Origin: Pseudovirgaria hyperparasitica
Lineage: Eukaryota
Direction: 5' to 3' (one strand)
Length of the DNA stretch: 64,000 bases
Assembly (NCBI GenBank): GCA_010093815.1
Contig: ML996582.1
Notes under the pieces: model-generated
The model's input: the letters and a program-made list of their open reading frames with translations, nothing else
Told to the model about the DNA's origin: nothing
Database searches by the model: none
Position numbers and translations under genes: made by a program
Shown: positions 1,786-37,286 of the stretch, one piece after another
How the letters are laid out: each line of letters opens with the position of its first letter
How positions within the stretch are numbered: the first letter of the stretch is position 1

Positions 1786-4700
1786 TGTAAAGAGTAAAGA
1801 CGTAGAATAGTAGTCTAACAGTTCATAGAGAGACATAGAAATGTATTTATAGAGTAATCTCACTATTATACGAGGTTGATTCCTAACGAGTAGGAATCGG
1901 TTTATACGGTCTACTTATATAGTAACCTCGCTTAACTTAGCTAACTTAACACAGCTCTAGCCACTACGTGGCTATATAGATTAGAATAGTCTATATAGGT
2001 CCGTCGTGGTTCCCGTCCTAATAATATCCTTCTTCTTTTTATACTTTGCCCCGAAGCACTTAAGTATATATAATCCTAAGTCTCTATAATCTATCGTGTA
2101 TCTATATATCCGTAACTAAGTTCCTATAACGTTATAACCATCCTTAATATAGGTGAACTCGAGATTCTAGTTTACTTTTATTAGTTTATATACGCGCTTA
2201 TCCCTTGCTTCGTGGCTACTACCTAGGATATATAATTACTACTTTGGTCGAGTATATATTTAGCTTCGCTCGCCTTTGATTTTATTCTCTAGTATATCTA
2301 CCTCGCTCTTAAGGTAAGTCGTTAATTCATATACTATCTTCCCTAGTTTAGGTTTAGAAGGGTCTATAGTAGTCCATTCTTATTAGAACCGGTCCTATAT
2401 AACCTATTCGCGTTATTACGGTTACTAATTTAGCTTCATTAATCGCCGTTAAGGGTGGACGAATATTCCTTCCTTAGATCTCTAGCTAACGTGTATATAT
2501 AGATATCTAATACTAGTCCTATCTCTAAGCCTGCCTCCTCCTCTCGCAAGACTCGCTCTAAAGGTATTACCTTCTCCCCGGCCACGCCGGCTAAGAAGTC
2601 TACCTATTACGGTAGTATAAAGGCGCACTCTAAGTCGGAGAAGAGAGTAGCTAGGGCTGCTACTACTACTATCTCTACTACTAATGTGGCTACTAGTCGC
2701 TCTAGGTCCTTTTAGGACCTTAACATTCGCTCTAAACCCCAGCCTACTAATAATAAGGCCTAGGTCGCTAAGGATACTAAACGTAGTCGTGGTTTACGCC
2801 ATAGGAAAACGGCGAACTACGGTTTAATATACTATAAGTATATTAAGGGCTATGCGGCCGGCTCTAAATATCTCTTTCGCTCTAACTCTAGTATTAGCTA
2901 CTACTCTACTAACCGCGACGGGCCTATACGCCCTATCTTTACTCTACCTACCCGCTACCGCCGCTATACCGTAACTAGTAAGACTTATCTATAGGTAAGT
3001 ATAATAGGCTATCTTAATCTAGTATAATCTAAAGTAGTCCGCGCTAATATATTCTTAGATTCCTATGCGTATATAAGATATATATAACGACCTTCGCGTC
3101 CGCGAGACCCTCGGGGGTCCTTATAGCCGCCTACCTACTATATAGAGAGAGTTTAGAGAGCGCTATAAGCTCTTCCTAGAGGTTATTAAAGTATAAGTTA
3201 CGAGCACGTTAATTATTTTTAACACCTATTAATTTTTCTAGCCGCCGCGAGATCCCTAGTACCTAGGCTATCTATTCTAGAGAGTCTATTCTAGCTATAG
3301 AGGCCGTAGAGAGGATTCGCTCTATCCCCCCCTGTCCGTCTCGCGCTACTAATAGATCTTATAAGAGGTCTACTATTTCTCCCTCTAAGTCGCCTCGTAA
3401 GAGGGTATATATTCCCTTCTAGATTATTCTAGATCATATTAGCTAACTTTAGACCTAGTCACTACACTCCAGCGCTTAAGGCTCTTCCCTCTAGACTCTA
3501 ACGGATCAGGTTATTACTCTAGAGGCTAAGGTCGTCGTCCTCCGCCGCTATATCGTGCGGTTAGAGAGAACTATACTAGAGGTTAGGACGGATAATAAGA
3601 TAGAGGAGTAGCTCTATGGTTCTAGCTCTATGTGTTCTAGATCTACTATAGGTGGTGCGCGCCGGCTCTGTTTACCTAGCTTTTATCCGTTTTAGTCCTT
3701 TTTAGACTATTTAGATACCCGTCGGCTAGTTTCTAGTAATTTAATTCTTAACTTAACGATATTATATATGCGCTCGCTTAGCTTATAACTATCGGTTTCT
3801 ATATTCTAATTTTCCTTAAGTTACCTAAGTATGGGTACCATATATAAATTAGTTTATCTCTAGAAATTCTATTAGAGTACCTAAACTAGTAGCCTAGTAG
3901 TTATTAGTTCGGGTACTCTAACCTTTTATATTTCGTGTTAAGAGTTTAATTCTATAGTAGGGTACCTTTTTTTAGGTTCTTAGTCCTATATTTTTCTCAT
4001 ATATAATAGTCCATATTAGTCCATTCTAGACTCTTCTATATTATTCTATTATAGTATGTCGCGTTACGTTCCTAAAATGGTTATTTACGCTTTCTTCGCG
4101 TCTAGTAACCGTGCGACGCTTGAATTATAGAGCTACTATATAGAGTTTTCCTAGTGCGCGTCTAGATTTCCTAGTTTAGTACTTCGTTCTCTACGGTATC
4201 CTTCTTCTTTTTATAACGACCGCGACGTCGCTATACTTATATTAATAATATACTATTCTACATCTTTTACTTATACACAGCCATTATAGAACTTAAGATA
4301 TATACCACTAGTTCCTAGGTGTTCTCATTCTTAGTATAGTCCTTCTAACGGATTCTATATTTCTAAACACCGTCTTTATCGATCCTATATTCGATAATAT
4401 AGTCTACTTTAAACACGTCTAGTCTATCTTAGGGTATAATAGAGTATAACTACACGTTCGTGCGGCCATATACGTTAGGTTAAAATCTTTTAAGTAGTAA
4501 GACGTGGAACACGTTATAGATTCTTATATCGCTTCCTAAGTTAAGCTCATAGACTCTTATACCGATATAACGTTTAATTCGGAAGGGACTAGCCATTTTA
4601 TAATTAAGCTTCTTATTTACTCGCGACGTTTATATATTATAGACATTAAGAAGGACCTTATCGTTCTCCTCGTACGTCTAATCCTTAGCTAATCTATTAT

Positions 4701-7700
4701 AGTACTTCGTATACGAGTCGTTTACTTATTAGATTATAGCGTAATAGTTACGTACGGTTTCGAAGATTTTAATTACTAATTTCTAAGCGTGGACGTTCAC
4801 GTCTATTATTCGATTAAATTAGACCGTCTAAGGCTTAAAACCTATCCTTAGACTACGTCCGAGGTTCGCCTAGAAAGGTATAATATCTATTATACTATAA
4901 CGACTATTATTATATACGAACTCTACTATGCTTAGTAGGGAGGCCTAGTCGTTCTACTCGAAATTATAGAATACGCGTAGGTAGGCCTTAAGCGTCTAGT
5001 TCTATCGCTCTATCTAGCTATCCGTCTAAGGATGAAATGCTATAGACATGTTTCTATTTATACTTACCATTTTATAGAATAACGTCTAGAATTTGGACGT
5101 AAAGGTACTTTCTCGGTCCGTAACGATCCTTTTTAGTATACCATGGACCTTAATAATCTCGTTCTAGAACACCTACGCTAGTTCTTTAGATATAATCATC
5201 TTCTATACTAGGATATATCTAGACATCTTTATAAGTCTATCCACGATAATAAGAATAGAATTATAACTTATTCTAAGCATCTCGCTTAGAGATAAGTTAA
5301 CTATAAAGTCTATAGTAACATCTTCCTATATAAAGAGGGGGGCTAAAAGAGGCTATAAATTTCTATATAGCTTATGCCTAGGGGCCTTTATTCTTTAATA
5401 AATTAGATAAGTAGCTATCTATTCTTCGACGTACTTAGGTATATCTTTCTAAAAATAGTACTAACGAATTAAGCTTAGGGTACGTATATACCTAAAGTGT
5501 CCTACTAGGTTAGCGTTATAGTATCAGCTAACTACGTTAAATCGCGCGTTATCTATTAGTATATAGTACTTTCTATCGTAGTAAAGTAAGCCGTCCACGA
5601 AGGTCTACTTATAGTCTACTTTAGTCCGTAATAACCTATCTTACTATATTTTATATAACTTTAAAACTATCGGGTCTATCTTCTATAGATCTATAATTAA
5701 CTAGGCGAGGTTAATTAGATATTTACGCCGGGTATTATCGCCCTTCCTAATAGCGCTAATAAACGGCCTACTAGGGACTTCGGTACCGCGTCTTTAGTTA
5801 CCGGCTTTAGTCTTAGAGATTTAATTACCGGTATCGACGTTAGTATCTCGCTAATCATCTAATAACTTAAAATCTAACCTCGTCCTTAAGAGTTAGGCCT
5901 ATAGCTACTCTAGAACTCTATAGCTACTATAATTCTAGGCGCCTTCTTTATAGTTAGGTCTTCTTAACATTCTATTAGCTAGGTTTATACTTCTAGGTTA
6001 ATAGTAGATTATAAAGTGAAAGTTCGTAAGCTACTTAGTCTATTAGATCTATTAATGGTTTAAAACCGTTATACTTATAAACCCCTTTAAGTTATAGTAA
6101 TTAGTTAGTAACTCGACGTTATACATGGCACCTTTAAGATAATATCGCCACTATTTAAACGACTCTACTATTACTAGTAGCTCTTAGTTATAGATAGTAT
6201 ATCTAGTCTTAATATCGACTATTTTACGTAAGAAGAACGTAACTAGATGCCATTAGACCTTTTTAGACTTAGTTAGTCTAGGCTAGAAGAGAATACCTAA
6301 GATTATAAATTCTAACGCATCGGTTTTAACGTAGATAGGTTTAGTCGGGTCGAAGTACACTAGTAATAGGGCAGTTATAAATGCCTCTTTGATTTTCTTA
6401 AAGGAGGCCCTTTCGCCTTCCGATAATTCTATAGGCTACGATTTAATATTATACTATTTCTATCTACCGCGGACCGTAATAGATGAATCTATAGTAGTAG
6501 TACGCGCGTTAAGCGGTGCTACTAGCCGGGAGAAATACTTAATGAATTTTTAGTAGTAATTAGTAAATCTAATAAAGACACGTATATCTCGAACCGATTT
6601 TGGTTTAGGCTAGTCCATAATAGTAGCGACCCTATCCCTTTCTATAGTTATACCTTAATTAGTAATAACGAAGCTAAGGAAGTTAATATGGTCCTAGTGG
6701 AACTCGCATTTGGATAGCTTAATATATAGCTTATATTTTTCTAGCCTATCTAGGACTACGCGTACGTGCTAGATATGTTCTTCTTCGTTATTAGAGAAGA
6801 TAAGGATATTATTAAGGTATACGATGCACGTCGTGTCGAGTAGGCCTACTAGCGCGTTATTAATATACGCTTAGAAGGTTCCTAGCGCGTTAGTTAGTCT
6901 AAAAGGGACTACTATATACTCGAAGTATCTATAACGGGTTCTAAACGCCGTTTTCTACTTATCGCCCTTCTTAATACGTAGGCGGTAGTAGGCGTCGTGT
7001 AGATCGAGCTTAGTAAAGATCTTCACGCGCCCTAGTCTATTAATAGACTCGGAGATAAGAGATAGTAGGTAACGATTCTTTCGTATAATATTATTTAGGC
7101 TATAGTAGTCGATATATAGACGGAGACTTCTATCCTTCTTCTTTATAAAGAGGATTAGAGCTCCGGCTAGGGATATACTAGGCCTAATCTATTCTCGCGT
7201 AAGGTTCTTTTCGATATATTCTTAGAGGACCTATAGCTCGGGTTCTAATAGAGGGTAGATAGGTCCGTGTAGGGGTTATTAACTATCTTTAAGGTTAATA
7301 GTAAGGTCAGTAGGTTAGTATTAAGGTAATTCGGACGAGTCGATCGCTAACGCGATATATTAGTATATTTTATACTAATGTAGTAGGTTTTCGTCTACTT
7401 TAATACTAAGCTCTCTATTTTAAGTAAGTAAGAGGACGTAGATAGCGGAGATTACCTTTTTATAGTCCTTCTGGAATTATTTATCGTTAACTAGCTATAC
7501 TAGGTTCTATTATAGTAGGTACATGCGCTAGCCAGCTGTTTTCTAGATGAAGTCTAGTTTCGGGTTATATTTTTCGAGCTATAGTATACTAAGAATTATA
7601 TTAAAGGGACTATCTACCACGATAAAGGTTAAGTAGTAGGGTTTCCACTTCCTCCCGCTATCCTAGATGCCGTATTTAATAGTATAGGTACCCTACGATT

Positions 7701-9599
7701 TAATAGGACCGTTAATACTATAGAAGGTAGCATCTATTAGTACTTAAATGTCGACGTTAAGTTCTCGTGCTTATTAAGTCGATATAACGTTAGTAGCTAA
7801 ACCGCTATTAAGTATTATAGTCTAATGTTATCCACGAGGGACCTTAATAGGCCTAGCCTATAGTTTAATATACTAGTTAGCTAGTTATCCCTCTATTTTA
7901 GTTACGCCTATAAGTCGCGAGGGTTCCTTATAGATAGTTAGTTTTTTATATCGTGTACCGGGTAGTTAGGCGCGATATATTCTAGCTACTAGCACTTATA
8001 GTATATAACTAACTTAGTATCTATATTAGTATTTAGTAGTTTCCCTAAGCGGCACTCGGGTACTATATAGCCTATCCTACCATAGGTATAGTAGGTGACT
8101 TTAGGTCGTTTATACGAGTCGTTTCTCGCGTCTTAATATATTAACTAGTAGAAAGATCCGCGGTACGGGCCTCGTCTTCTCGAGTTCGTAGAGTGGTAGC
8201 GCCTACGAGGTGTTCCGCGCGATCTATTACTAAACTAGTCCTCTTTAGATAATTTTATATCGGATTAGATTAATAGGGATAGTCGTGCGCCTATACGATA
8301 TTAGTTATTTATTATATACTAATATCGTTCTACGAGATTCGCGAGTACCTAAAGATTAGTAGGGATAGACGTTATAAGGTCGATGCGTTCCTTTATACTT
8401 GGGTTAAGGGACCTTTTAAAGTTATTATATTATTAAACTATGCGATCTTCCTCGGCTTCTCTCTAAAGAGGTTAGAGATATTTAAGGAGTTATAACGGGG
8501 ATTATCTCTCTCGCTATTAAGTCTTAAAGATATAGCTCTAAGTCTATTTATATCGCTCGGCTCTATCGCCGAAGTATTAAAGAAGGAATTCAGTGAACGT
8601 GTCCTAGTTATACGTATCCTTAGGGTATTTAATTCGATGTGCCATCCAACGTTTAGATGGCGTTAGATCTAGGTAGTTCTATATGAACCTAATCTTATTA
8701 CTATCGTTCGTGAATAGGTAGAAGAATTAGCTATACTAGTAAGCCTATTTATAAAAGCTCCTCCTGGTTTTACCGTTAAAGTAAGGTAGTTTCTTAGGCT
8801 AAGGTAACTAGGATAGTAATAGACTTAGTTAGATTATTTCGGCTTAAGTTAGTCTATATTAGTGTAGATTAGTTACTACTAGTACTAAAGCGCGTAGTAC
8901 GGCTTTGAGTCTAGCGGTTTATCCTTATACTTCGTCGAGTTCGCGAAGTTACTACTCGAGCTAAGCCTAACGCTATCTCTCCGCGTGTAGCTTAGTATAT
9001 ACATCGTTATAAGGCGTGGTTAACGTTAGTTAATTCTAACGAATTAATTCGTTAACGTTAATAGGGTCTAGTCTTATAGTAAGGATAGGTCTAGTATAGT
9101 ATAAACTAGACCGCAATAGAGTATAATAGACTCCTTTCTTATTATCTAGGTAATCTTCCACGGTTATACGGAATGCCGTACTAGTTATTAGTACGATAGT
9201 CTATAGGGTATATTTATCGGTGGAGGTGGTCGTAGGGAGACTATTCTCTTCGTTTAGATTTAGAGAGAGTCTCTTATATAAGGTAGTGCCACGGGTATTA
9301 TAGCGCGTAGTAGGAGCTATCTCTATAAGCTACCGTCGTGCTATATAGAGAGGAATTAAAATATAAAGAGTAAAGACGTAGGATAGTAGTCTAATAGTTC
9401 ATAGAGAGATATAGAAATATATTTATAGAGTAATCTTACTCTTATACGAGGTTGATTCCTAACGAGTAGGAATCGGTTTATACGGTCTACTTATATAGTA
9501 ACCTCGCTTAACTTAGCTAACTTAACATAGCTCTGGCCACTACGTGGCTGCATAGATTAGAATAGTCTATATAGGTCCGTCGTGGTTCCCGTCCTAATA
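1786..9599 (-). mobile_element. Full-length RIP'd Ty3/Gypsy chromovirus, family A (7.8 kb)
   Basis: 238-bp LTRs at 1786-2023 and 9362-9599; TSD GATAT at 1781-1785 and 9600-9604; PPT complement after 2023. Minus-strand de-RIP motifs: CCHC ~7960-8010, RT VYLDD ~6808-6822, KLSKCEFH, integrase DVTMDF/IVDRLTK/IVTDRGS ~5100-5330, chromodomain RWKDYTKNENTWEP ~4310-4355. Confidence 0.95.
2503..3611 (+). pseudogene. Antisense intron-containing cargo gene inside element A; Zn-cluster-like Cys motif plus C-terminal coiled coil
   Basis: Predicted exons 2503-2994, 3059-3192, 3242-3404, 3453-~3611. Introns: GTAAGT..GCTAAT..TAG (2995-3058); ATAAGT (read as RIP'd donor)..TAG (3193-3241); GTATAT..GCTAAC..TAG (3405-3452). 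The spliced frame is continuous and all internal stops are RIP-revertible TAG/TAA. The 3' end is uncertain. Confidence 0.72.
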
Positions 9600-11759
9600 G
9601 ATATAGATAAATAAAGAATAGCTAAGAGATAAATCTAGTAAATAGTCTAGATAAAATCTACGTCTAACTACGCCTCTAAATTCTAATAAATCTCTAGTTA
9701 GCTAGGATAGAATAATAAACCCCTAATTCTCTAGTTCTATACTAGATTATATAACGATATTAAGGATAAAATCTCCAGAGAGAGAGACTATTCTACTAAC
9801 CTCTAAGAGTATATTAAGCTTATAGTCTAGATTAATAACTAACTATATAAGAGATACTATAAGAAAAGAGGGAAAAAGATCTTTTAACCCGTACTTAAAC
9901 GAGATACTTAGAAGGGTTATATTAATAAAGCCCTAAACTATCTATATAAGGGATTCTATAATAGACCTATACTAATAGAACTTAGTACCTTATAGATAAA
10001 ATATCTATCTAGTAAAGAAAGGGAGTAACTAAAGAAGAAAGGCAAGTATCTCTACTATAAAGAAAAGGGATACTACGCCCGCGAATACCCGAAAAACAAA
10101 ATTAAGAAAAACTAGATTAAGAACCTAGTATTAAGATAAGGAAACTTCGCTATAGAAAAGGAAGAAGTACCTTATATAGCTATATTATAGACTAGTTATA
10201 CTAACGACCTCTACTTTATATATAAGTTAGAAAAAGATAGTATAGATTAGTATCTAAAGAAAAGAAACGTTTTAATAGCTAGTAAATAACCCCTATTACT
10301 TTATAAAAAAATAGAACTATAGAAATACTTAGATATAATAAGAAGATCTAAAGTAACTAAAGAAACGGTATCTAAAGAAGTAATAATTAAAGAAAGTACT
10401 ACTAAGGAAGATAGTAAGGGAGAAACCCTTACTATAGAAGAACTATATAATAAGTTAATAATAGACTAAGACCCTACTACTTACTATATTATCTACTATT
10501 ATAGAAAATATAGAGGTAAGGATAATAGAGACCTATCTTTAAGAGAGGTAGAGATTTAACCGGAAGATAATTAACTTATCTTACTCTACCACGAGAAACA
10601 TAATAAGACCTCTTAGATTATCTATCTCTATAATAACTATCTTTACTATCTTTATAAGAAGTAAACCTAGGAATAGTTTCTATAATAGTATTAGAATTAA
10701 ATAATTCTAAAAGTCTTTAGAGATAAAGATATATAATAGTATAAAATAATTACTAAGGAAGCTAATAAAAATTACTTTATATTAAAACGGGTAGAAAATA
10801 AGGATTATCTAGAGAACTAATATACCTAATATCCGGACGTTACGTGCCGAACTCACCTAATATCTAAGGCTATTATATAGTATAACCTTTAAGTAGACTT
10901 AGATAAAATTAAGAAATAGGTTTAATCTATAATCTAACTTATATAGAAAATAGAATAGAAACTTAGTAAGCTACAAAAAAACTAGGAGGGCCGGATATAC
11001 TAAGAGAAACGGCCGAGCTAAAAAGAAACTCTCTTATATCTATTAGTAGCTTAGACGATAAAATATAAATATGTAAGAATAGGGTTATTGGATAGTAGTG
11101 TAGTTAGATAGAATAATAGGGTGTATTCTATTATAGAACGAATTACTACCGAACTCTTTCGGTAGAAATCCAAGAGTATATATATAAAGGGACGCCGATC
11201 TATCTAGTACGTAACTATTTACCGCCCTTCACGTTACCTCCTAACTCTATTAGCTAAGGTATATATAGGTCGGGTTCTACCTAAGGCTAAGTCCTAATAA
11301 TTATCCCTTCCCTCTAGGAAGCTACCCTTAGCGACCTAGATTATTATCTATCCCTATATCCCTATCCTAAGTCTCGTAAGACCTTAGTCGTTCTCTACGC
11401 TTTATCTTAGATACTTACCGATATTCGCCGATCTAAGATTTATATAAGCATTTTCCTAATAAACTAGATTTTATCTATCTTAACTTCTTATATAGGTGAG
11501 ATTACCTAATTAGGCCTAGCGTATCACGTAATGTGATTAGGTAAGCCCGGGTACTACCTATATTAAAATCTTTTCTTAGAAATATTCCTTTCTTTAAAAA
11601 ACTTCTTAACTCTTTATAGAGTTTTTTAGATTATTAGGTATATCACCCGATCCTTATAGATATAGATTTATATAGATTTACTATAATTTAGTACGATTTA
11701 CGTAATTTACTAATTTTCGTACCGTCCTTAGCTAGTAATAATATAATTCGTAATAATCT

Positions 11760-12802: not shown

Positions 12803-13627
12803 NNNNNNNNNNNNNNNNNNNNNNNNNNNNNNNNNNNNNNNNNNNNNNNNNNNNNNNNNNNNNNNNNNNNNNNNNNNNNNNNNNNNNNNNNNNNNNNNNN
12901 NNNNNNNNNNNNNNNNNNNNNNNNNNNNNNNNNNNNNNNNNNNNNNNNNNNNNNNNNNNNNNNNNNNNNNNNNNNNNNNNNNNNNNNNNNNNNNNNNNNN
13001 NNNNNNNNNNNNNNNNNNNNNNNNNNNNNNNNNNNNNNNNNNNNNNNNNNNNNNNNNNNNNNNNNNNNNNNNNNNNNNNNNNNNNNNNNNNNNNNNNNNN
13101 NNNNNNNNNNNNNNNNNNNNNNNNNNNNNNNNNNNNNNNNNNNNNNNNNNNNNNNNNNNNNNNNNNNNNNNNNNNNNNNNNNNNNNNNNNNNNNNNNNNN
13201 NNNNNNNNNNNNNNNNNNNNNNNNNNNNNNNNNNNNNNNNNNNNNNNNNNNNNNNNNNNNNNNNNNNNNNNNNNNNNNNNNNNNNNNNNNNNNNNNNNNN
13301 NNNNNNNNNNNNNNNNNNNNNNNNNNNNNNNNNNNNNNNNNNNNNNNNNNNNNNNNNNNNNNNNNNNNNNNNNNNNNNNNNNNNNNNNNNNNNNNNNNNN
13401 NNNNNNNNNNNNNNNNNNNNNNNNNNNNNNNNNNNNNNNNNNNNNNNNNNNNNNNNNNNNNNNNNNNNNNNNNNNNNNNNNNNNNNNNNNNNNNNNNNNN
13501 NNNNNNNNNNNNNNNNNNNNNNNNNNNNNNNNNNNNNNNNNNNNNNNNNNNNNNNNNNNNNNNNNNNNNNNNNNNNNNNNNNNNNNNNNNNNNNNNNNNN
13601 NNNNNNNNNNNNNNNNNNNNNNNNNNN
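12803..13627. other. Assembly gap (N run)
   Basis: Run of n; further gaps at 14874-14883 and 27957-28221. Confidence 1.
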
Positions 13628-16600
13628 ACACGAGTAATCTTATATAGACCTATTATTATATAGTTAAGCTTCTTCTTTAGCCTAATACTATAAATATTCT
13701 TACTATTTAGTAAAACTTTATCTCTAATATTAAAGATCATGGGTTTTCTACCCTTGTTATAGTGCGATTTACTATAATTCATAGTATCTTATAGTAACTT
13801 TATAATGCTTCTTTACGTTTAGAATAGTTCTATAGTAATTTCTATTACTTTAACGTTAGGTTATTCTACTTTAAACTAAGTCCCTAAGAACTATATATTA
13901 TGGTTCTAACCGAAGTTTACTTCGAACGGACTTACGTAGGTTAACGTATATTAGCTGTTATTATACGCGAATTCCGCGATATAGACTAACCTTACCTAGT
14001 TATTCTACTTATAGTTATAATATACGCGTAAATAGGCCTCGACTATCTAATTCTACTACTCCGTCTATCTATCTATTTATAGATAGAACGTAGTACTAAG
14101 TTTCCGCTTAATTTCTAGCGTATAGTAGAAATCCTTCTAAAATTTAGATGTTATCTACGGACCTCTATCCGAAACTATACCATTTAGTATACTATAGAGC
14201 CGGACTACGTTACGGAGTAGTATATCTATAAGATCTAGTACTTAGATCGTCTTCCTTATAGGGATATAGTATAATATCTTTATAAATCTATCTAGAACTA
14301 CGAGTAAACTATTATAAATATACCTAGAATACTTACTTAGGGGTAGATCTATAATGAAATCCATTAATAATTCCTTCTATGCCTCCTTTAGCATAGGTAA
14401 TGGCCTTAATTTACTATATAGTAAGTGTCTATATACTTTCGTATACTAGTAAACGTTATACGTTTTTATATAGTCTTTTATATATTTATAAAGACCCGGC
14501 TAGTTATACGTTCTTTGAATTAAATCGACCGTTCTTATAACGCCGAAGTACCCTACTAACGTATAATTATACTATTCCCTTAAAATATTAATTCGTAAGC
14601 CGCCTTCCGGCACGTAGAGTCGGTCTTAGAAGTAGATCGCGTCCGATCGTCGTTTCTATCTTAATAACTACGGCGGATCTATAGCGCTTCCTTTTATACT
14701 TATAACTTTCTTTACTAATATATCGGAATTCTAGGTAGATTTAATTAAGTCTTCGAGGGTTTTCTTAGTTTCTTAGATGTTTATTTAGATTACTTAATAC
14801 CCGCTCTAATTCCCGCGGAGAATCGCCGAAAGTATCCTAGCTTCTAGCATTCTATTAGATAACTAGTCTTATANNNNNNNNNNGTTTATTTAGATTACTT
14901 AATACCCGCTCTAATTCCCGCGGAGAATCGCCGAAAGTATCCTAGCTTCTAGCATTCTATTAGATAACTAGTCTTATAGTATCTAAAGTATAGTATAGTC
15001 TAACTTACACTAACTATCTACGTTATTCTATAACGATTTCTTATAATCTTTACGCCGCGATAGAGGATTAGCTTTATTCTCTCTTCTAGCTTTATATAAG
15101 ATTTTAAAGTTAAATATTAATATCTACTTAGCCTAACGTACTTATCGGTAATTAAGGACCTTAGTTAATATAAAGTAATATAGATTTACGTAATCCGATA
15201 ATAATTCGATCTAATATATAGAGCCTTCTAAATAATATTACTATTACTTAAAACTCTTAATAATTATAAGTAGTTTCTAGTCGTGTATATTATAACGTAT
15301 CTCTATATCCGCCATTTTATAGGAAAAGAAAGCGACCGGGTACTATTACACCTTATCTTTCGTATCTTTATATAGTTAACTAATAATTCTAGTAATTACG
15401 AATTCTAACGCGTTAGTTTCGATCTAAATATACTTCTTAGAATTAAAATATCTAAGAATCGGCGTGGTTATAAAGTAATTCTTTAATAATTAGAACGTAT
15501 CTTACGCTTCCGGCGTTAACTATATCTCGACCGACTTAGCTTTACGCTATACTCGCCTATCTATAGGGATTTTACCGCCATTCTCTATAAGTTTATTAAG
15601 CGGCGCCGTAATTCGTAAGAAGTCTATAATGAATTTCTAATAATAGTTTATAAAATCTATAAATATTCTAATTTAACGTATAGTAGTAGGTTCTAGCCAT
15701 TCTATGATGGTCTTTACACGCTCTAGCTCCATTTTTAGGCCGCTATATATTATAATAAAGCCGAGAAACCCAACTTCTTATTAGTGAAACTTATATTTAG
15801 ATAATTTTACGTAGAGTTTATACTACCTTAGATGATTTAGTACCGATTTCACGTGTTCTTTATAATTCTATATACTATTAGAGTAAATTAGTATATTATT
15901 AAGATAAACTACGTAAATCACGTTAAGTAATCCTACGAGTATAGTGTTAATATATCCTTAGAACGCTCCTAGCGTATTTATTAGCCCGAATGGTATAATA
16001 GTATACTTAAACTAACCATATCTAGTCTAAAATGCGGTTTTCTACTTATCTCCGCGACGAATTTAAAGCCGGTAATATATATCTCGTAAATCTAGCTTTA
16101 TAAAGTACTTTACCTTCGTTAATTAGTCTAAAGATTTACTAACTAGCGGTAATAGATAACGATTCTTCTTAGTTACCGTATTTAGTACCTAATAGTTAAC
16201 GCATAGACGTAAACTTCTGTCTTTCTTCTTTATAAAGAGAATAGATACGCCGGCTAATAACGTACTATAATATATCTAGCCTCTTTCGAGGTATTCTTTA
16301 ATATATTTATAAAGAACTTCGAGTTCTAGTCTTAAAAGTAGATAAAGTAGGCTATAAGGGACGTCTACTCCCTCTTCGAGCTTAATCTTTAGCTTATACG
16401 GCCCGTGATTAGGGAGAAGTAACGTATCTCCTACTAAAAATATATCTATATACGGCGAATATACGTCGGATAGCGTGTCTTCGCCCTAATTATTACTATC
16501 GTCCTTATCTTTATCGATAATTAATAAGGACGTAAGATAGATTAGCGATAATTGGGTCCGTATAGCGAGGTTCTATATCTCCTTACTAATAGTTACGACT

Positions 16601-25967: not shown

Positions 25968-28900
25968 TTAGTTTAGATCTATACTAATTAATACTAATAT
26001 ATCTCTTTTATCTAGCGTTTATGGTTTTTTAGTTTTAATTTTAAAGCGATCTTACTTCTTCTAGATAGATTAGTATAAGTTTATATAGATCTATATAGAT
26101 CTTTATATTTTCTTTTAGCTTTCTTAATTTTATCTTTCTTTAATAATAACTTCTTTAATCTCTTTAGTAATCTATACCAATCTATACCAATCAGCACCAA
26201 TTTTCAATGTCCATTTCTCTTAGTAAATTATTTTTCTAAGTCTCTTTTTTAGTTAAATTTTTTAAAGTTCTAAGTTCGAACTTTCTAAGGAAGTTTCTTA
26301 ATTCCTTAGAATGTTTTAAAGATCTATATCTCTTTTACCTTCTTCCTTTTAGGCGGCCATCCTCAGCGCCAAACTATACTAAAAAACGTTAAATCACCAT
26401 ACTTTAGTATAATTCTCTATAATTCCGTAGCTTCCTTTACTAATCGCTACTTATATACTAATATTACTACTTTACTAATATTTATTATAGGTTCCTAAGT
26501 ATCTTCGTTAGAATTATATCCTTTCTAATAAATTTTATATAGCTATATACTATCTTCGGCGCATTACTAGCTAAGTATCTACTTAACTTTATAGATATCT
26601 ATACCTTCTTACGTAACTACTTTATATAGTATCTATTTAGAACGATCTAGTAATAATAAGGTATAAAATAGCTCGAGAAGCGTAATATAGAATATATTAT
26701 ATATCTTTAATATAGGAGGGAGTTATAACTCGTACGCCTAGTTATTAATTACACGAGTAATCTTATATAGATCTATTATTATATAGTTAAGCTTCTTCTT
26801 TAGTCTAATACTATAAATATTCTTACTATTTAGTAAAACTTTATCCCTAACATTAAAGATTATAGGTTTTCTACCCTTATTATAGTACGATTTACTATAA
26901 TTCATAGTATCTTATAGTAACTTTATAATGCTTCTTTATATTTAGAATAGTTCTATAGTAATTTCTATTACTTTAACGTTAGGTCGTTCTACTTTAAACT
27001 AAGTCCCTAAGAACTATATATTATAGTTCTAACCGAAGTTTACTTCGAACGGACTTACGTAGATTAACGTATATCGGCTATTATTATACGCGAATTCCGC
27101 GATATAGACTAACCTTACCTAGTTATTCTACTTATAGTTATAATATATATATAAATACACCTCGACTATCTAATTCTACCGCTCTATCTACCTATCTATT
27201 TATAGATAGAATATAGTACTAAGTTTCTACTTAATTCCTAGTATATAGTAGAAATCCTTCTAAAATTTAGATATTATCTATAGACCTCTATCTAAAACTA
27301 TACCGTTTAGTATACTATAGAGCTAGACTATATTACGGAGTAGTATATCTATAAGATCCGGTGCTTAGATTATCTTTCTTATAGAGATATAGTATAATAT
27401 CTTTATAAATCTATCTAGAACTACAAGTAAACTATTATAAATATACCTAGAATACTTACTTAGGGGTAGATCTATAATGAAATCCATCGATAATTCCTTC
27501 CATGCCTCCTTTAGTATAGGTAATGGCCTTAATTTACTATATAGTAAGTATCTATATACTTTCGTATACTAGTAAACGTTATACGTTTTTATATAGTCTT
27601 TTATATATTTATAAAGACCCGGCTAGTCGTATATCCTTCGGATTAAATCGACCGTCCTTATAATACCGAAGTGCCCTACTAACGTGTAATCGTACTATTC
27701 CCTTAAAACATTAATTTATAAGCCGCCTTCTAGCACGTAGAGTCGGCCTTAGAAGTAGATCGCGTCTAATTATTGTTTCTACCTTAATAACCACGGTAGA
27801 TCTATAGCGCTTCCTTTTATACTTATAACTTTCTTTACTAATATATCGGAATTCTAGGTAGATTTAATTAAGTCTTTAAGGGTTTTCTTAGTTTCTTAGA
27901 CGTTTATTTAGATTACTTAATACCCGCTCTAATTCCCGCGGAGAATCGCCGAAAGTNNNNNNNNNNNNNNNNNNNNNNNNNNNNNNNNNNNNNNNNNNNN
28001 NNNNNNNNNNNNNNNNNNNNNNNNNNNNNNNNNNNNNNNNNNNNNNNNNNNNNNNNNNNNNNNNNNNNNNNNNNNNNNNNNNNNNNNNNNNNNNNNNNNN
28101 NNNNNNNNNNNNNNNNNNNNNNNNNNNNNNNNNNNNNNNNNNNNNNNNNNNNNNNNNNNNNNNNNNNNNNNNNNNNNNNNNNNNNNNNNNNNNNNNNNNN
28201 NNNNNNNNNNNNNNNNNNNNNATTTTATAGGAAAAGAAAGCGACCGGGTACTATTACACCTTATCTTTCGTATCTTTATATAGTTAACTAATAATTCTAG
28301 TAATTACGAATTCTAACGCGTTAGTTTCGATCTAAATATACTTCTTAGAATTAAAATATCTAAGAATCGGCGTGGTTATAAAGTAATTCTTTAATAATTA
28401 GAACGTATCTTACGCTTCCGGCGTTAACTATATCTCGACCGACTTAGCTTTACGCTATACTCGCCTATCTATAGGGATTTTACCGCCATTCTCTATAAGT
28501 TTATTAAGCGGCGCCGTAATTCGTAAGAAGTCTATAATAAATTTACGATAATAGTTCACGAAACCTATAAATGTTCTAATTTAATATATAGTAGTAGGTT
28601 CTAGCCATTCCATGATGGTCTTTACACGCTCTAGCTCTATTTTTAGGCCGCTATATATTATAATAAAGCTGAGAAACCTAACTTCTTATTAGTGAAACTT
28701 ATATTTAGATAATTTTACGTAGAGTTTATACTACCTTAGACGATTTAGTACTAATTTCACGTGTTCTTTATAATTCTATATACTATCGGAGTAAATTAGT
28801 ATATTATTAAGATAAACTACGCAAATCACGTTAAGTAATCCTATAAGTATAGTATTAATATATTCTTAAAACGCTTCTAGTGCATTTATTAGCCCGAATA

Positions 28901-31547
28901 GTATAATAGTATACTTAAAATAACTATATCTAGTCCGAAATACGGTTTTCTACTTATCTCCGCGATAAATTTAAAGCTAGTAATATATATCTCGTAAATC
29001 TAGCTTCGTAAAGTACTTTACCTTTATTAATTAGTCTAAAGATTTACTAACTAGCGGTAATAGATGACGATTCTTCTTAGTTACCGTATTTAGTATCTAA
29101 TAGTCGACGTATAGATATAAACTTCCGTCTTTCTTCTTTACGAAGAGAATAGATACGCTAGCCGATAACATACTATAACGTATCTAGCCTCTTTCGAGAT
29201 ATTCTTTAATATATTTATAAAGAACTTCGAGTTCTAGTCTCGAAAGTAGGTAAAGTAGACTATAAGGGATGTCTACTCCCTCTTTAAGCTCGATCTTTAG
29301 CTTATATAGCCTATAATTAGGAAGAAGTAACGCATCTCCTACCGAAAACACATCTATATACTACGAATATACGTCGGGTAGCGTGTCTTCGCCCTAATTA
29401 TTACTATCGTCCTTATCTTTATTAATAATTAATAAGGACGTAAGATAGATTAGTAACGATTAGGTCTACACGGCGAGGTTCTATACCTTCTTACTAATAG
29501 TTACGACTTACTAGTATAATTTACCACGGTATCATTAGAACGTTAATATCTCCTTCTAAAAATTAAGAATAGGATTTAGGCGTCTAAGCTAAGGTATCCC
29601 TAGAATTATATTCTATTAGCTAATATTAGCCACGATAAATTCATTAGACATCTACTATTTTATTATCTTCGAGTTATGAACTTCGTAATTTATTATAGCT
29701 TTATCTAAAGTTCTAACTTCATGTCTATTAACTACGATAGTTCGGCTAACTTTACTAAGATTATATAATAATCTATACTCCTTTATAAGAATTAACGAAA
29801 TATAGTTATCTTCTATACTAGTATCTACGAGGGCCTATATAGTTTTATTACTATTTACTATAGGTAATAATACTTTTAGTAATATTAGGTCTTTACTCGC
29901 TAGAAGGCGCTACGGCTCCTTCTAAGTATATATAATTTAGCTAAGGACGCGGTTAGGTCTCGTGTACTAGCCTATTCTTTTTTCGGATTCTTATAGTTAG
30001 GCGAAATATATTCTATTTCTCTATACTTATAGTAACGAAGTATACTATAATCCTACTATTTTATAATAGGCGTTATATTTAAGTCTATACCTTATTCTTT
30101 TCCGTGTTAAGAAGCACCGCCTTAATTATTTTGGTATTCTCTTAACGCGTTTCTACCCCGATTTACGCTCTTCTAGCGCTAATCGCGGTAAGGTTACTCT
30201 TAATCGAACGTATTTAATCGACCTCGTTTCTAACCCGTATAGGGTTCGTCGGTTTTACCTAGAGAGCCGCGTTCCTTAAGGATACGGTAGTATTTATTAG
30301 CTTTCTCCTCTAATTCGTATAGATAGTTAAAACTTAATAATACTATTTCTAGTCTTTCGCGGATTAACGGAAGTAGTACTTCGTAAAACTAGAATATATA
30401 AATATTTTCCTATAGTATAGGGATATTATCCTATAGGTTTTAGAGGTATTATAGTAGTTAAGTAGGTGTCTAGTTCGGTCGTTATGCTACGCTTCTTAAC
30501 TTAGATAGTACCTTTCTTTTACGTTCTCTATCCGTTCTAAGGGTGTTTAGTATAAATATAGCTAAATATTCCTAGGTTATCGTAGATAGTAACTATACTT
30601 CCTTCTATCTATCCTATTAATCGTAGAATTATAAGTCTAGATATTATTCTCCGAACGAAATGCGTTATACTTTAGTAGAAAAGAGTAGAGGGTTATTAAG
30701 GAAGTACTTTTCGTAGTCTCTCTTCTAGTCTTTCTACTCCTTTTAGTTCTTCTCTATAAATATAGTCGGGTCTTTAGATTTCAGTATACCTAGGGAAGGA
30801 GTAGAGTAAATCAGTAACAAAGCGGCCGGGTATATAGTAGATTATCATAACTCTAATAGTAGGTGAACTAATTCCGCCTAAATTAGTATAGAAAGTCGTC
30901 TATCTACTATCGTTCGGCGTAGTTCTTTAAGAGACTCCTTAAGTTCTCGTCTCTTTGCGAGGAGTTTCGCGCGTTCTACCTATTCTTTAAGGGTTTAAAT
31001 CTCTCGAGCCTAATTCGCGACGTATTCCTAAAGTTTAGTAATGGTTTATTATAATACCTCGCGTGGCTCCGCCACGACTCGTTATCCGGCTTTATATTAT
31101 TAGAAGTTACTCGGCGTATCTACTATTTCTTCGTCTAAAAGCTCCGTGATTCGGTCTAATATTTCTACTTCTCGGTTAGAAACGGCCGGGATTAATACCA
31201 ATTATAGAGGATCCCTATTATTTAATATAGTATTACTTATCCCTATAGTGGATCGTATCGACCTTCTTGGTTCTAGTTAGACTATCTTAACTATAGTACT
31301 ATATAGGGAGTAATTCGAATGTAAGAATAGGGTTATTAGATAGTAGTATAGTTAGATAGAATAATAGGGTATATTCTATTATAGAACGAATTACTACTAA
31401 ACCCTTTCGGTAGAAATCTAAGAGTATATATATAAAGGGACGCCGATCTATCTAGCACGTAACTATTTACCGCCCTTCACGTCACCTCCTAACCCTGTTA
31501 GCTAAGGTACGTGTAGGTCGGGTCCTACCTAAGGCTAAGTCCTAATA

Positions 31548-36879: not shown

Positions 36880-37286
36880 TATTCTTACGTCTAGCTAGGT
36901 ATATACCTCTATATTTAAAGGCGCTCTAGATAGATATAGAGGAGGTATTAGAGGTCTATAGTACTATATATTAGTTATACTATCTCTTTAATACTATACT
37001 ATATAGTTATAGATACTATATAAGCGTGGTATAGTAGTAATAGATAAAAATGTCGATTATACTAAATCGTGCGTGTTGGTGACAGGGCGAACATCGGGCG
37101 CCAAGCTTTCCCATGCAACTATGGATATACGGATTAGCTGAAACAGACGCGTTTTTCCCGATACACGCGAACCATGTCCAAGCCCATGTTACTTTCCACC
37201 ACGACCATGACTCTCTTGACTTCAGCCCGAATCTTTGCTTGACCAAGATCTCTGGATACGCTACTCTTCCTCGTTTGTAAGCAACA

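Follow-up and report, generated by a model that had tools for sequence, protein, structure and literature searches.

An antisense additional gene, brtn, is said to have been described in Boty-like Ty3/gypsy elements of Botrytis cinerea and Sclerotinia by Zhao et al. in 2011 (Virology 417:248). Antisense open reading frames (ORFs) between pol and the 3' long terminal repeat (LTR) have been reported from maize Grande, rice RIRE2, Silene Retand and Phaseolus PvRetro13, with brtn of Botrytis and Sclerotinia Boty as the fungal case (excerpts of PMC7264820); brtn is cited further in the consulted parts of PMC8365987, PMC4227169 and PMC5987419. In the case of Retand, 97% of clusters carry antisense ORFs, mostly with a TRP28 domain that is thought to be DNA-binding, and HBZ is drawn in for comparison as an antisense nuclear protein (excerpts of the review PMC11963269). 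In the same excerpts, presence in most copies is taken as the mark of an accessory gene rather than of transduction, and capture is discussed as an origin of such ORFs. Here we analyzed a stretch of 64,000 nt from Pseudovirgaria hyperparasitica (contig ML996582.1 of assembly GCA_010093815.1; the whole stretch is called the window below). Between pol and the 3' LTR of a minus-strand chromovirus altered by repeat-induced point mutation (RIP), the window holds the relic of a coding gene, antisense to gag-pol and interrupted by three introns.

By its position, its strand and its presence across the family, this gene is an antisense additional ORF of the kind represented by brtn, Grande, RIRE2 and Retand. 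The kind is already known, and the locus adds another, structurally clear member and no new principle. A first-pass annotation, made from the letters of the window alone, had overstated the novelty, as ORFs in this place are published for Boty brtn and for several plant families (excerpts of PMC7264820 and PMC11963269). With brtn, which is known here through the papers citing it in their consulted parts, the locus shares a fungal chromodomain gypsy host element and an extra gene that lies antisense between pol and the 3' LTR and is present in family copies. However, brtn comes from Leotiomycetes, whereas the best named pol relative of the present element is from Parastagonospora and all copies seen are RIP-dead. 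The plant ORFs, as far as the excerpts describe them, share position, orientation and occurrence in most copies with the present gene, and for them too a regulatory role, nuclear or DNA-binding, has been proposed, but they belong to non-chromovirus Tat/Retand lineages with 3-6.5 kb between pol and LTR, and their TRP28 profile (PF04195) was not matched here. For fungal LTR retrotransposons, a literature search brought up no antisense gene with several introns; the additional files of PMC8365987, which may bear on this, lay outside its scope. The word 'intron' was absent from the searched text of PMC11963269.

When the segments 2995-3058, 3193-3241 and 3405-3452 were excised from the plus strand of 2503-3611, a single frame of 948 nt (316 codons) in four exons was obtained. 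These segments, and their property of keeping one frame, had been pointed out in the first-pass annotation, together with an extra region of about 2 kb between the chromodomain and the polypurine tract, a GCTAAC...TAG acceptor before the start and a coiled coil in the last exon; all of these were recovered. The extra region runs from 2044 to 4196 (about 2.15 kb) and separates the end of pol from the polypurine tract at 2024-2043. As a test independent of the splice shapes, the codon phase of TpA dinucleotides was used, and its counts in the three phases are included in the following description of the gene.

2044-2502, plus strand: presumed promoter and 5' untranslated region of the antisense gene, placed by position only; TpA-phase bias absent.
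2503-2994, plus strand: exon 1, 164 codons; starts with ATA and holds three TAG stops; TpA phase 52/16/10.
2818-2988, plus strand: tyrosine-rich cluster in exon 1, 11 Tyr among 57 residues (residues 106-162), with Y-x2-Y twice.
2995-3058, plus strand: intron 1, 64 nt; GTAAGT...GCTAAT...TAG; flat TpA phase (5/2/8); +1 frame shift.
3059-3192, plus strand: exon 2, 134 nt; two stops; TpA phase 6/11/5, as predicted.
3193-3241, plus strand: intron 2, 49 nt; ATAAGT...TAG; TpA phase 1/3/4; +1 frame shift.
3242-3404, plus strand: exon 3, 163 nt; one stop; basic S/P/K/R stretch at its end; TpA phase 3/3/15, as predicted.
3405-3452, plus strand: intron 3, 48 nt; GTATAT...GCTAAC...TAG; flat TpA phase (4/2/4).
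3453-3611, plus strand: exon 4, 53 codons including the terminal TAG; TpA phase 5/7/8.
3498-3584, plus strand: leucine-zipper-like heptad repeat; the only stop-free match of its pattern in the six frames of 1-37000.

The TpA phase was scored in 1217 sub-windows of 492 nt over positions 1-37000. The highest chi-square value (41.2; median 2.2, 99th percentile 19.0) was obtained at 2461-2983, and the runner-up was the element's own reverse transcriptase (RT) region with a value of about 20. The favoured phase shifts by +1, +1 and 0 across the introns of 64, 49 and 48 nt, which is the shift that introns of these lengths require if the T occupies the third codon position throughout, and inside the three introns the phase is flat. 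Tandem repeats in the region are tiny (the longest array has 37 nt; a (CTA)8 run lies at 2660-2683), so they do not account for the periodicity. The spliced frame contains 10 stops: the terminal one and nine internal ones within 315 codons. TAA and TAG make up the whole set, and TGA is absent. Such stops match the RIP products in pol, where six pairwise alignments with homologues, pooled, placed a stop against Gln 88 times and against Trp 68 times, with Trp kept 12 times.

The splice shapes agree with a RIP-altered gene. The ATA at 2503, directly preceded by the acceptor-like shape located at 2477-2502, fits an ATG changed by RIP, and the onset of the coding signal falls at about 2450-2500. 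The last of the three TAG stops in exon 1 immediately precedes the donor of intron 1 (TAG|GTAAGT, 2992-3000). The donors of intron 2 (ATAAGT at 3193) and intron 3 (GTATAT at 3405) each differ by one TpG-to-TpA change from GTAAGT and GTATGT, respectively. All three introns end in TAG, and GCTAAT or GCTAAC branch shapes precede the acceptors of introns 1 and 3. When intron 3 was read through, three stops appeared within 16 codons; an alternative acceptor at 3458 (54 nt) keeps the frame with one stop fewer. The end of the ORF is uncertain, its TAG being of the RIP type as well. An upstream exon (AAG|GTAAGT near 2314, with the acceptor at 2502) was dropped since the TpA-phase signal is absent upstream of about 2450, and an in-frame intron-like shape of 60 nt within exon 1 (2838-2897) was rejected since phase 0 continues there and its core is GC-rich. 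With RIP-tolerant patterns, the plus strand of 2400-3700 has six intron starts at four distinct places and the minus strand has one. Intron shapes by themselves are weak evidence, and their weight comes from the coincidence with the phase changes. Taken with these, the observation of an intron-bearing coding relic antisense to gag-pol is confirmed far beyond chance.

The predicted product has about 315 residues, with a basic N-terminal part rich in S, T, K and R, the Tyr cluster and a putative C-terminal leucine zipper. Four consecutive d positions of the zipper are occupied by Leu, and its a positions by V/V/I/I. Its pattern (L-x3-[VILM]-x2 three times, then L, stop-free) was met once in the 73,996 codons of the six frames of 1-37000, and that match lies in the predicted frame. 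A prediction of the zipper as a homodimer (two copies of 38 residues) scored 0.11 against a mark of 0.32, which is evidence neither way. A basic leucine zipper (bZIP) identity was rejected, because there is no basic region directly N-terminal to the zipper. The roughly 25 residues ahead of it are rich in S, H, A, G and L, not basic, and interrupted by three stops; a basic stretch is first met about 20 residues upstream, where exon 3 ends, and the Pfam bZIP profiles were unmatched.

Exon 1 contains no Cys as it is read in this copy. In the pooled pol alignments, Cys of the homologues stood against Tyr of this copy 34 times and against Cys 11 times, and for their His the corresponding figures were 88 with Tyr versus 51; 167 Tyr of this copy aligned to true Tyr. 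As pol of this copy thus reads Cys and His as Tyr, the Tyr cluster may hide a former Cys/His module, and a metal-binding module is a plausible candidate for exon 1. The first-pass annotation had gone further and suggested a Zn(II)2Cys6 cluster (PF00172), whose pattern is C-x2-C-x6-C-x5-12-C-x2-C-x6-8-C. This label was not supported. With Tyr read as Cys, Y152-x2-Y155-x6-Y162 fits the second half, but the first half would read Y110-x2-Y113-x3-Y117-x5-Y123 and 28 residues lie between the halves instead of 5-12. PF00172 was not matched in Pfam at E-values up to 10; a match was not to be expected, because about three quarters of the pol Cys are read as Tyr in this copy.

The host element is a RIP-mutated Ty3/gypsy chromovirus of 7,814 bp including its LTRs, and was delimited from a direct repeat pair (1788-2027 and 9364-9604, 95%) that a reading of the junctions refined to LTRs at 1786-2023 and 9362-9599. 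The LTR pair is bounded by a perfect 5-bp GATAT duplication, and the element is therefore a single insertion.

1781-1785, no strand: left target-site duplication GATAT; with the same 5-mer at 9600-9604 it abuts both LTRs.
1786-2023, minus strand: 3' LTR, 238 nt, 95% identity to 9362-9599.
2024-2043, minus strand: polypurine tract adjoining the 3' LTR, a purine run on the minus strand that abuts the LTR start.
4197-4215, minus strand: second copy of a 19-nt sequence of pol end and polypurine run, 100% identity to 2025-2043.
4200-7146, minus strand: pol with RT, RNase H, integrase, SH3 and chromodomain, from Pfam profiles.
4312-4413, minus strand: chromodomain remnant at the C-terminus of pol (PF00385, E-value 0.0021, 18.4 bits against a cut-off of 25.1).
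9362-9599, minus strand: 5' LTR, from the repeat pair and the junction reading.
9600-9604, no strand: right target-site duplication GATAT, matching the left copy.

The plus-strand ends of the LTRs (TG/TA...TA) are consistent with TG...CA altered by RIP, and gag and protease lie further upstream of pol, reaching about 9300. When the minus-strand translation was scanned with Pfam, stops being replaced by X, matches to RVT_1 (E-value 9.7e-22), RT_RNaseH_2 (1.2e-16), SH3_Tf2-1 (3.5e-10) and Integrase_H2C2 (0.0013) were found. A protein search with the RT-RNase H part matched 333 of 4736 candidates at an E-value of 1e-10 or better. The best 120 matches listed are chromodomain polyproteins with 41-53% identity, and the few named relatives are ascomycete, the best named being from Parastagonospora (P. 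nodorum). Intact homologues at 45-53% identity carry PF00385, the closest among them included. Near 4200 the pol reading ends in RRRGRYKKKK, matching the RRRGRPPK at the end of the homologue consensus, and 4197-4215 codes for the final Y-K-K-K-K-D. With RT, RNase H, integrase and a C-terminal chromodomain, which in this copy scores below the cut-off, the element classifies as a chromovirus on its sequence.

The antisense gene lies inside this one element with its flanking target-site duplications, and it is carried by the family at large. Contig pieces with at least 80% identity, from two sequencing runs of one DNA sample (X1 and X2), were mapped to 1788-5500 in 30 bins. There were 13,040 pieces in X1 and 4,515 in X2, and all 30 bins were covered. 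Summed depth in X1, taken qualitatively only, was 96k-233k in the extra region, 163k-293k in pol and 248k-332k in the LTR; the extra region thus reached about 0.4-1.0 of pol depth. It is this coverage, about as good as that of pol, that places the region in the family as a whole. The variable places in X1 were transitions in 174 of 182 cases, and copies differ mainly by RIP-type changes. In another study under the same species label, one run (X3) gave one partial piece of the family and another (X4) gave none, which is no proof of absence.

Relatives were also sought in metagenomes. An alignment of 14 intact polyproteins retrieved loci of which 596 of 604 pattern matches were confirmed and the best 80 kept, giving 78 chromovirus loci. 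In loci whose pol lies between a pair of repeats, the gap from pol to the 3' repeat ranges from a few bases (L010, L078 and L039, with pol reaching within 3-103 nt of the 3' LTR) to 1.4-1.8 kb (L029, L036, L018 and L075). The long spacers behind pol hold antisense ORFs of 153-182 aa, and several antisense ORFs in this position are shared with other loci at the same place. They make up three mutually unrelated families with 46-87% amino-acid identity. The first comprises L036:9467-10012(-) with L044:5179-5712(-) and L045:4201-4734(-) (54% over 180 aa), the second L029:7212-7670(-) with L024:3906-4262(-) (76%), and the third L049:6158-6745(-) with L075:12135-13402(-) (87%) and L017:3662-3931(-) (46%). 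Five antisense ORFs were scanned, those of L036, L029, L049 and L075 among them, and none matched Pfam at the curated cut-off or better. In locus L001, an antisense ORF has the motif C-x-K-C-x-K-G-Y, which recalls Y-Y-K-Y-I-K-G-Y of the present gene. It was rejected as an unproven homologue: its score of 91 in a RIP-aware Smith-Waterman comparison was equalled by 15 of 200 shuffles. A segment picked afterwards was reached by 8 of 500 shuffles, in a gappy alignment that left the C-x2-C motifs unpaired, and the Pfam and atlas searches with this ORF gave no match.

The interpretation that we prefer, with a probability of roughly 0.6, is that 2503-3611 is a RIP-killed antisense gene integral to its family, with three spliceosomal introns, that would have encoded a nuclear, dimerising, nucleic-acid-binding accessory protein modulating its own element. 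Transcription would have started from the gene's own promoter in the 480 nt adjoining the 3' LTR, and the antisense transcript would have been spliced by the host. Introns antisense to an element's RNA escape splicing from it, and this is the basis of antisense-intron reporters, artificial indicator genes for retrotransposition in which such an intron stays unspliced in the element RNA and survives reverse transcription. The introns of the present gene would likewise have remained in the genomic RNA and been copied in each round of retrotransposition; being antisense to that RNA is what would let them persist. The geometry is that of the reporters, but here the gene is natural and has three introns.

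With its basic N-terminal part, its possible former Cys/His cluster and its leucine zipper, the product may have been a nuclear protein that binds nucleic acids as a dimer. Among possible roles, composition and analogy point most to regulation by binding nucleic acids, and the protein may have modulated expression or replication of its own element. Such a role has been proposed for the plant antisense ORFs and shown for HBZ. HBZ of human T-cell leukemia virus type 1 (HTLV-1) is made from a spliced transcript whose promoter lies in the 3' LTR. It resembles the present gene in lying on the opposite strand at the 3' end, in being spliced (here predicted) and in having a leucine zipper. This is an analogy of design and not of membership: HTLV-1 is a human retrovirus, the zipper of HBZ is immediately preceded by a basic region, which is absent here, and there is no sequence similarity. 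The phrase 'regulator or anti-silencing factor' in the first-pass annotation is speculation.

Several points weigh against this reading. The gene was read base by base from one copy only, and every family copy seen is RIP-mutated. Exon 4 has no TpA-phase signal and that of exon 2 is only modest. A RIP-tolerant intron pattern arises by chance about 3.2 times per kb and strand, and two frames on each strand of 2503-2994 are stop-poor because of the TpA-phase bias. Contig depth is no copy number, and none of the 40 variable places listed, out of 206, coincides with a Tyr codon or splice dinucleotide. Two single X1 contigs link 2021 with 3721 and with 4378, skipping 1699 and 2356 nt, so the extra region may be incomplete or missing in some copies. 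The homologue searches add to this list. Pfam gave nothing for any exon or for the three full frames of 2001-4200, TRP28 included. Exon 1 searched with phmmer against 1.84 billion representatives gave one match only, a 677-aa tandem-repeat protein that was judged spurious. In word-based searches, none of 38 candidates for exon 1 ('near' lengths) reached an E-value of 10 or better and none of 66 for exons 3-4 read through intron 3 ('longer' lengths) matched, while an atlas search with a stop-free stretch of 76 aa had no usable match. Against the 78 chromovirus loci, the extra region gave a best tblastn E-value of 0.3 and nothing in tblastx at 0.01. The blanks are weak evidence, because RIP removed exactly the residues that would carry matches.

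Among the alternatives, the one that survives best, although we consider it unlikely, is that the segment is a fragment of a transduced host gene, captured in antisense at the junction of polypurine tract and LTR in a master copy and then amplified passively without a function for the element. The 19 nt at 2025-2043 take in the pol end and the polypurine run together with the first bases beside the LTR; they recur identically at 4197-4215 and so bracket the 2.15-kb region. In the preferred reading as well as in this one, the duplicated junction suggests that the region was acquired by an ancestor with pol leading directly into polypurine tract and LTR, as in L010 and L078 (L039 also has the short arrangement). 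The repeat resembles a scar left at this junction when a segment was inserted or captured; on later function it is silent. The introns and the preference for C at third positions resemble a host gene as well, and capture is an origin discussed for such ORFs (excerpts of PMC11963269). However, family contig pieces cover the segment about as well as pol, and presence in most copies marks an accessory gene (same excerpts). No paralogue was found elsewhere when the exons were compared with the window by tblastn, the database searches gave no host homologue, and an origin by capture is compatible with a later function.

A wider claim can be built on the family-integral accessory gene that we prefer. 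Fungal chromoviruses might commonly carry conserved antisense genes, a point supported by the three antisense ORF families conserved among the metagenomic chromoviruses, and the present one might be a natural counterpart of HBZ. It would be a multi-intron gene preserved in retrotransposition by its antisense geometry, and its product, a nuclear protein that binds metal and dimerises through the zipper, would tune transcription from the LTR or dampen silencing by the host. In this full form we consider the claim improbable. Even so, the one published case may understate how common antisense genes behind pol are in fungal-type chromoviruses.

It is very improbable that the coding relic lies on the minus strand, in the sense of the element, for example as a degraded extra or env-like ORF whose frameshifting damage imitates introns. 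In 2503-2994 the stops by frame are 3, 4 and 29 on the plus strand and 4, 12 and 38 on the minus strand; plus frame 0 has the fewest, and two minus frames are indeed stop-poor, one of them being the pol frame and open for about 120 codons. As two frames per strand are stop-poor, stop counts alone cannot choose the frame, and the stop-poor minus frames are expected from the TpA phase, which spares two frames on each strand the TA-derived stops. In RIP-insensitive contexts the third positions are C37 G21 T17 A5 in plus frame 0 of exon 1, whereas the in-register minus frame (T8 C19 G16 A22) has no such bias. In addition, the periodicity disappears within the three segments rather than continuing, GT..AG and branch shapes stand on the plus strand at exactly those segments, and the zipper is readable on the plus strand only. 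The least probable account is that there is no gene and that RIP, acting on a non-coding spacer or short repeats, produced periodicity and frame by accident, for although RIP-rich DNA yields chance intron shapes at the rate given above, a (CTA)8 run is present and no homologue was found, the chi-square tops all 1217 sub-windows at twice the value of the element's own RT, tandem repeats span at most 37 nt, three independent phase changes agree with the intron lengths and the zipper motif occurs only once in 73,996 codons.

The closest counterpart of retroviral accessory genes that LTR retrotransposons have is their extra genes, and to our knowledge none of these has a known function. As a multi-exon case from a fungal family of very many copies, the intron-bearing antisense gene described here indicates that introns can pass through retrotransposition inside such genes, and it offers a second fungal lineage besides Boty for asking what they do. 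Since all copies seen are dead, function is approachable only through an in-silico consensus or through relatives. The TpA-phase test is a practical finder of coding relics and exon boundaries in RIP-ruined DNA.

The element stands in an AT-rich block. GC content is 0.23-0.45 across the first 37 kb of the window and about 0.5 in the remainder, and TpA is abundant in the AT-rich part, matching the expectation for RIP. Near 37000 this RIP-type block (GC about 0.3) changes abruptly to gene-type sequence (GC about 0.5), and the genome is compartmentalised. A GC value of 0.106 at 13001-14000 is due to a run of N from 12803 to beyond 13450, an assembly gap or masked stretch. Further gypsy families are present in the block, as seen from RT remnants at 15876-16256 and 28789-29150 with 66% and 65% identity to the RT of the element at 1786-9599; nothing similar to the antisense gene was found at these two remnants. 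Just beyond the 3' LTR of the element there is a 155-nt direct repeat (808-962 and 1270-1424, 86%), and a perfect duplication of 95 nt was observed at 14779-14873 and 14884-14978, with a spacing of 105 nt.

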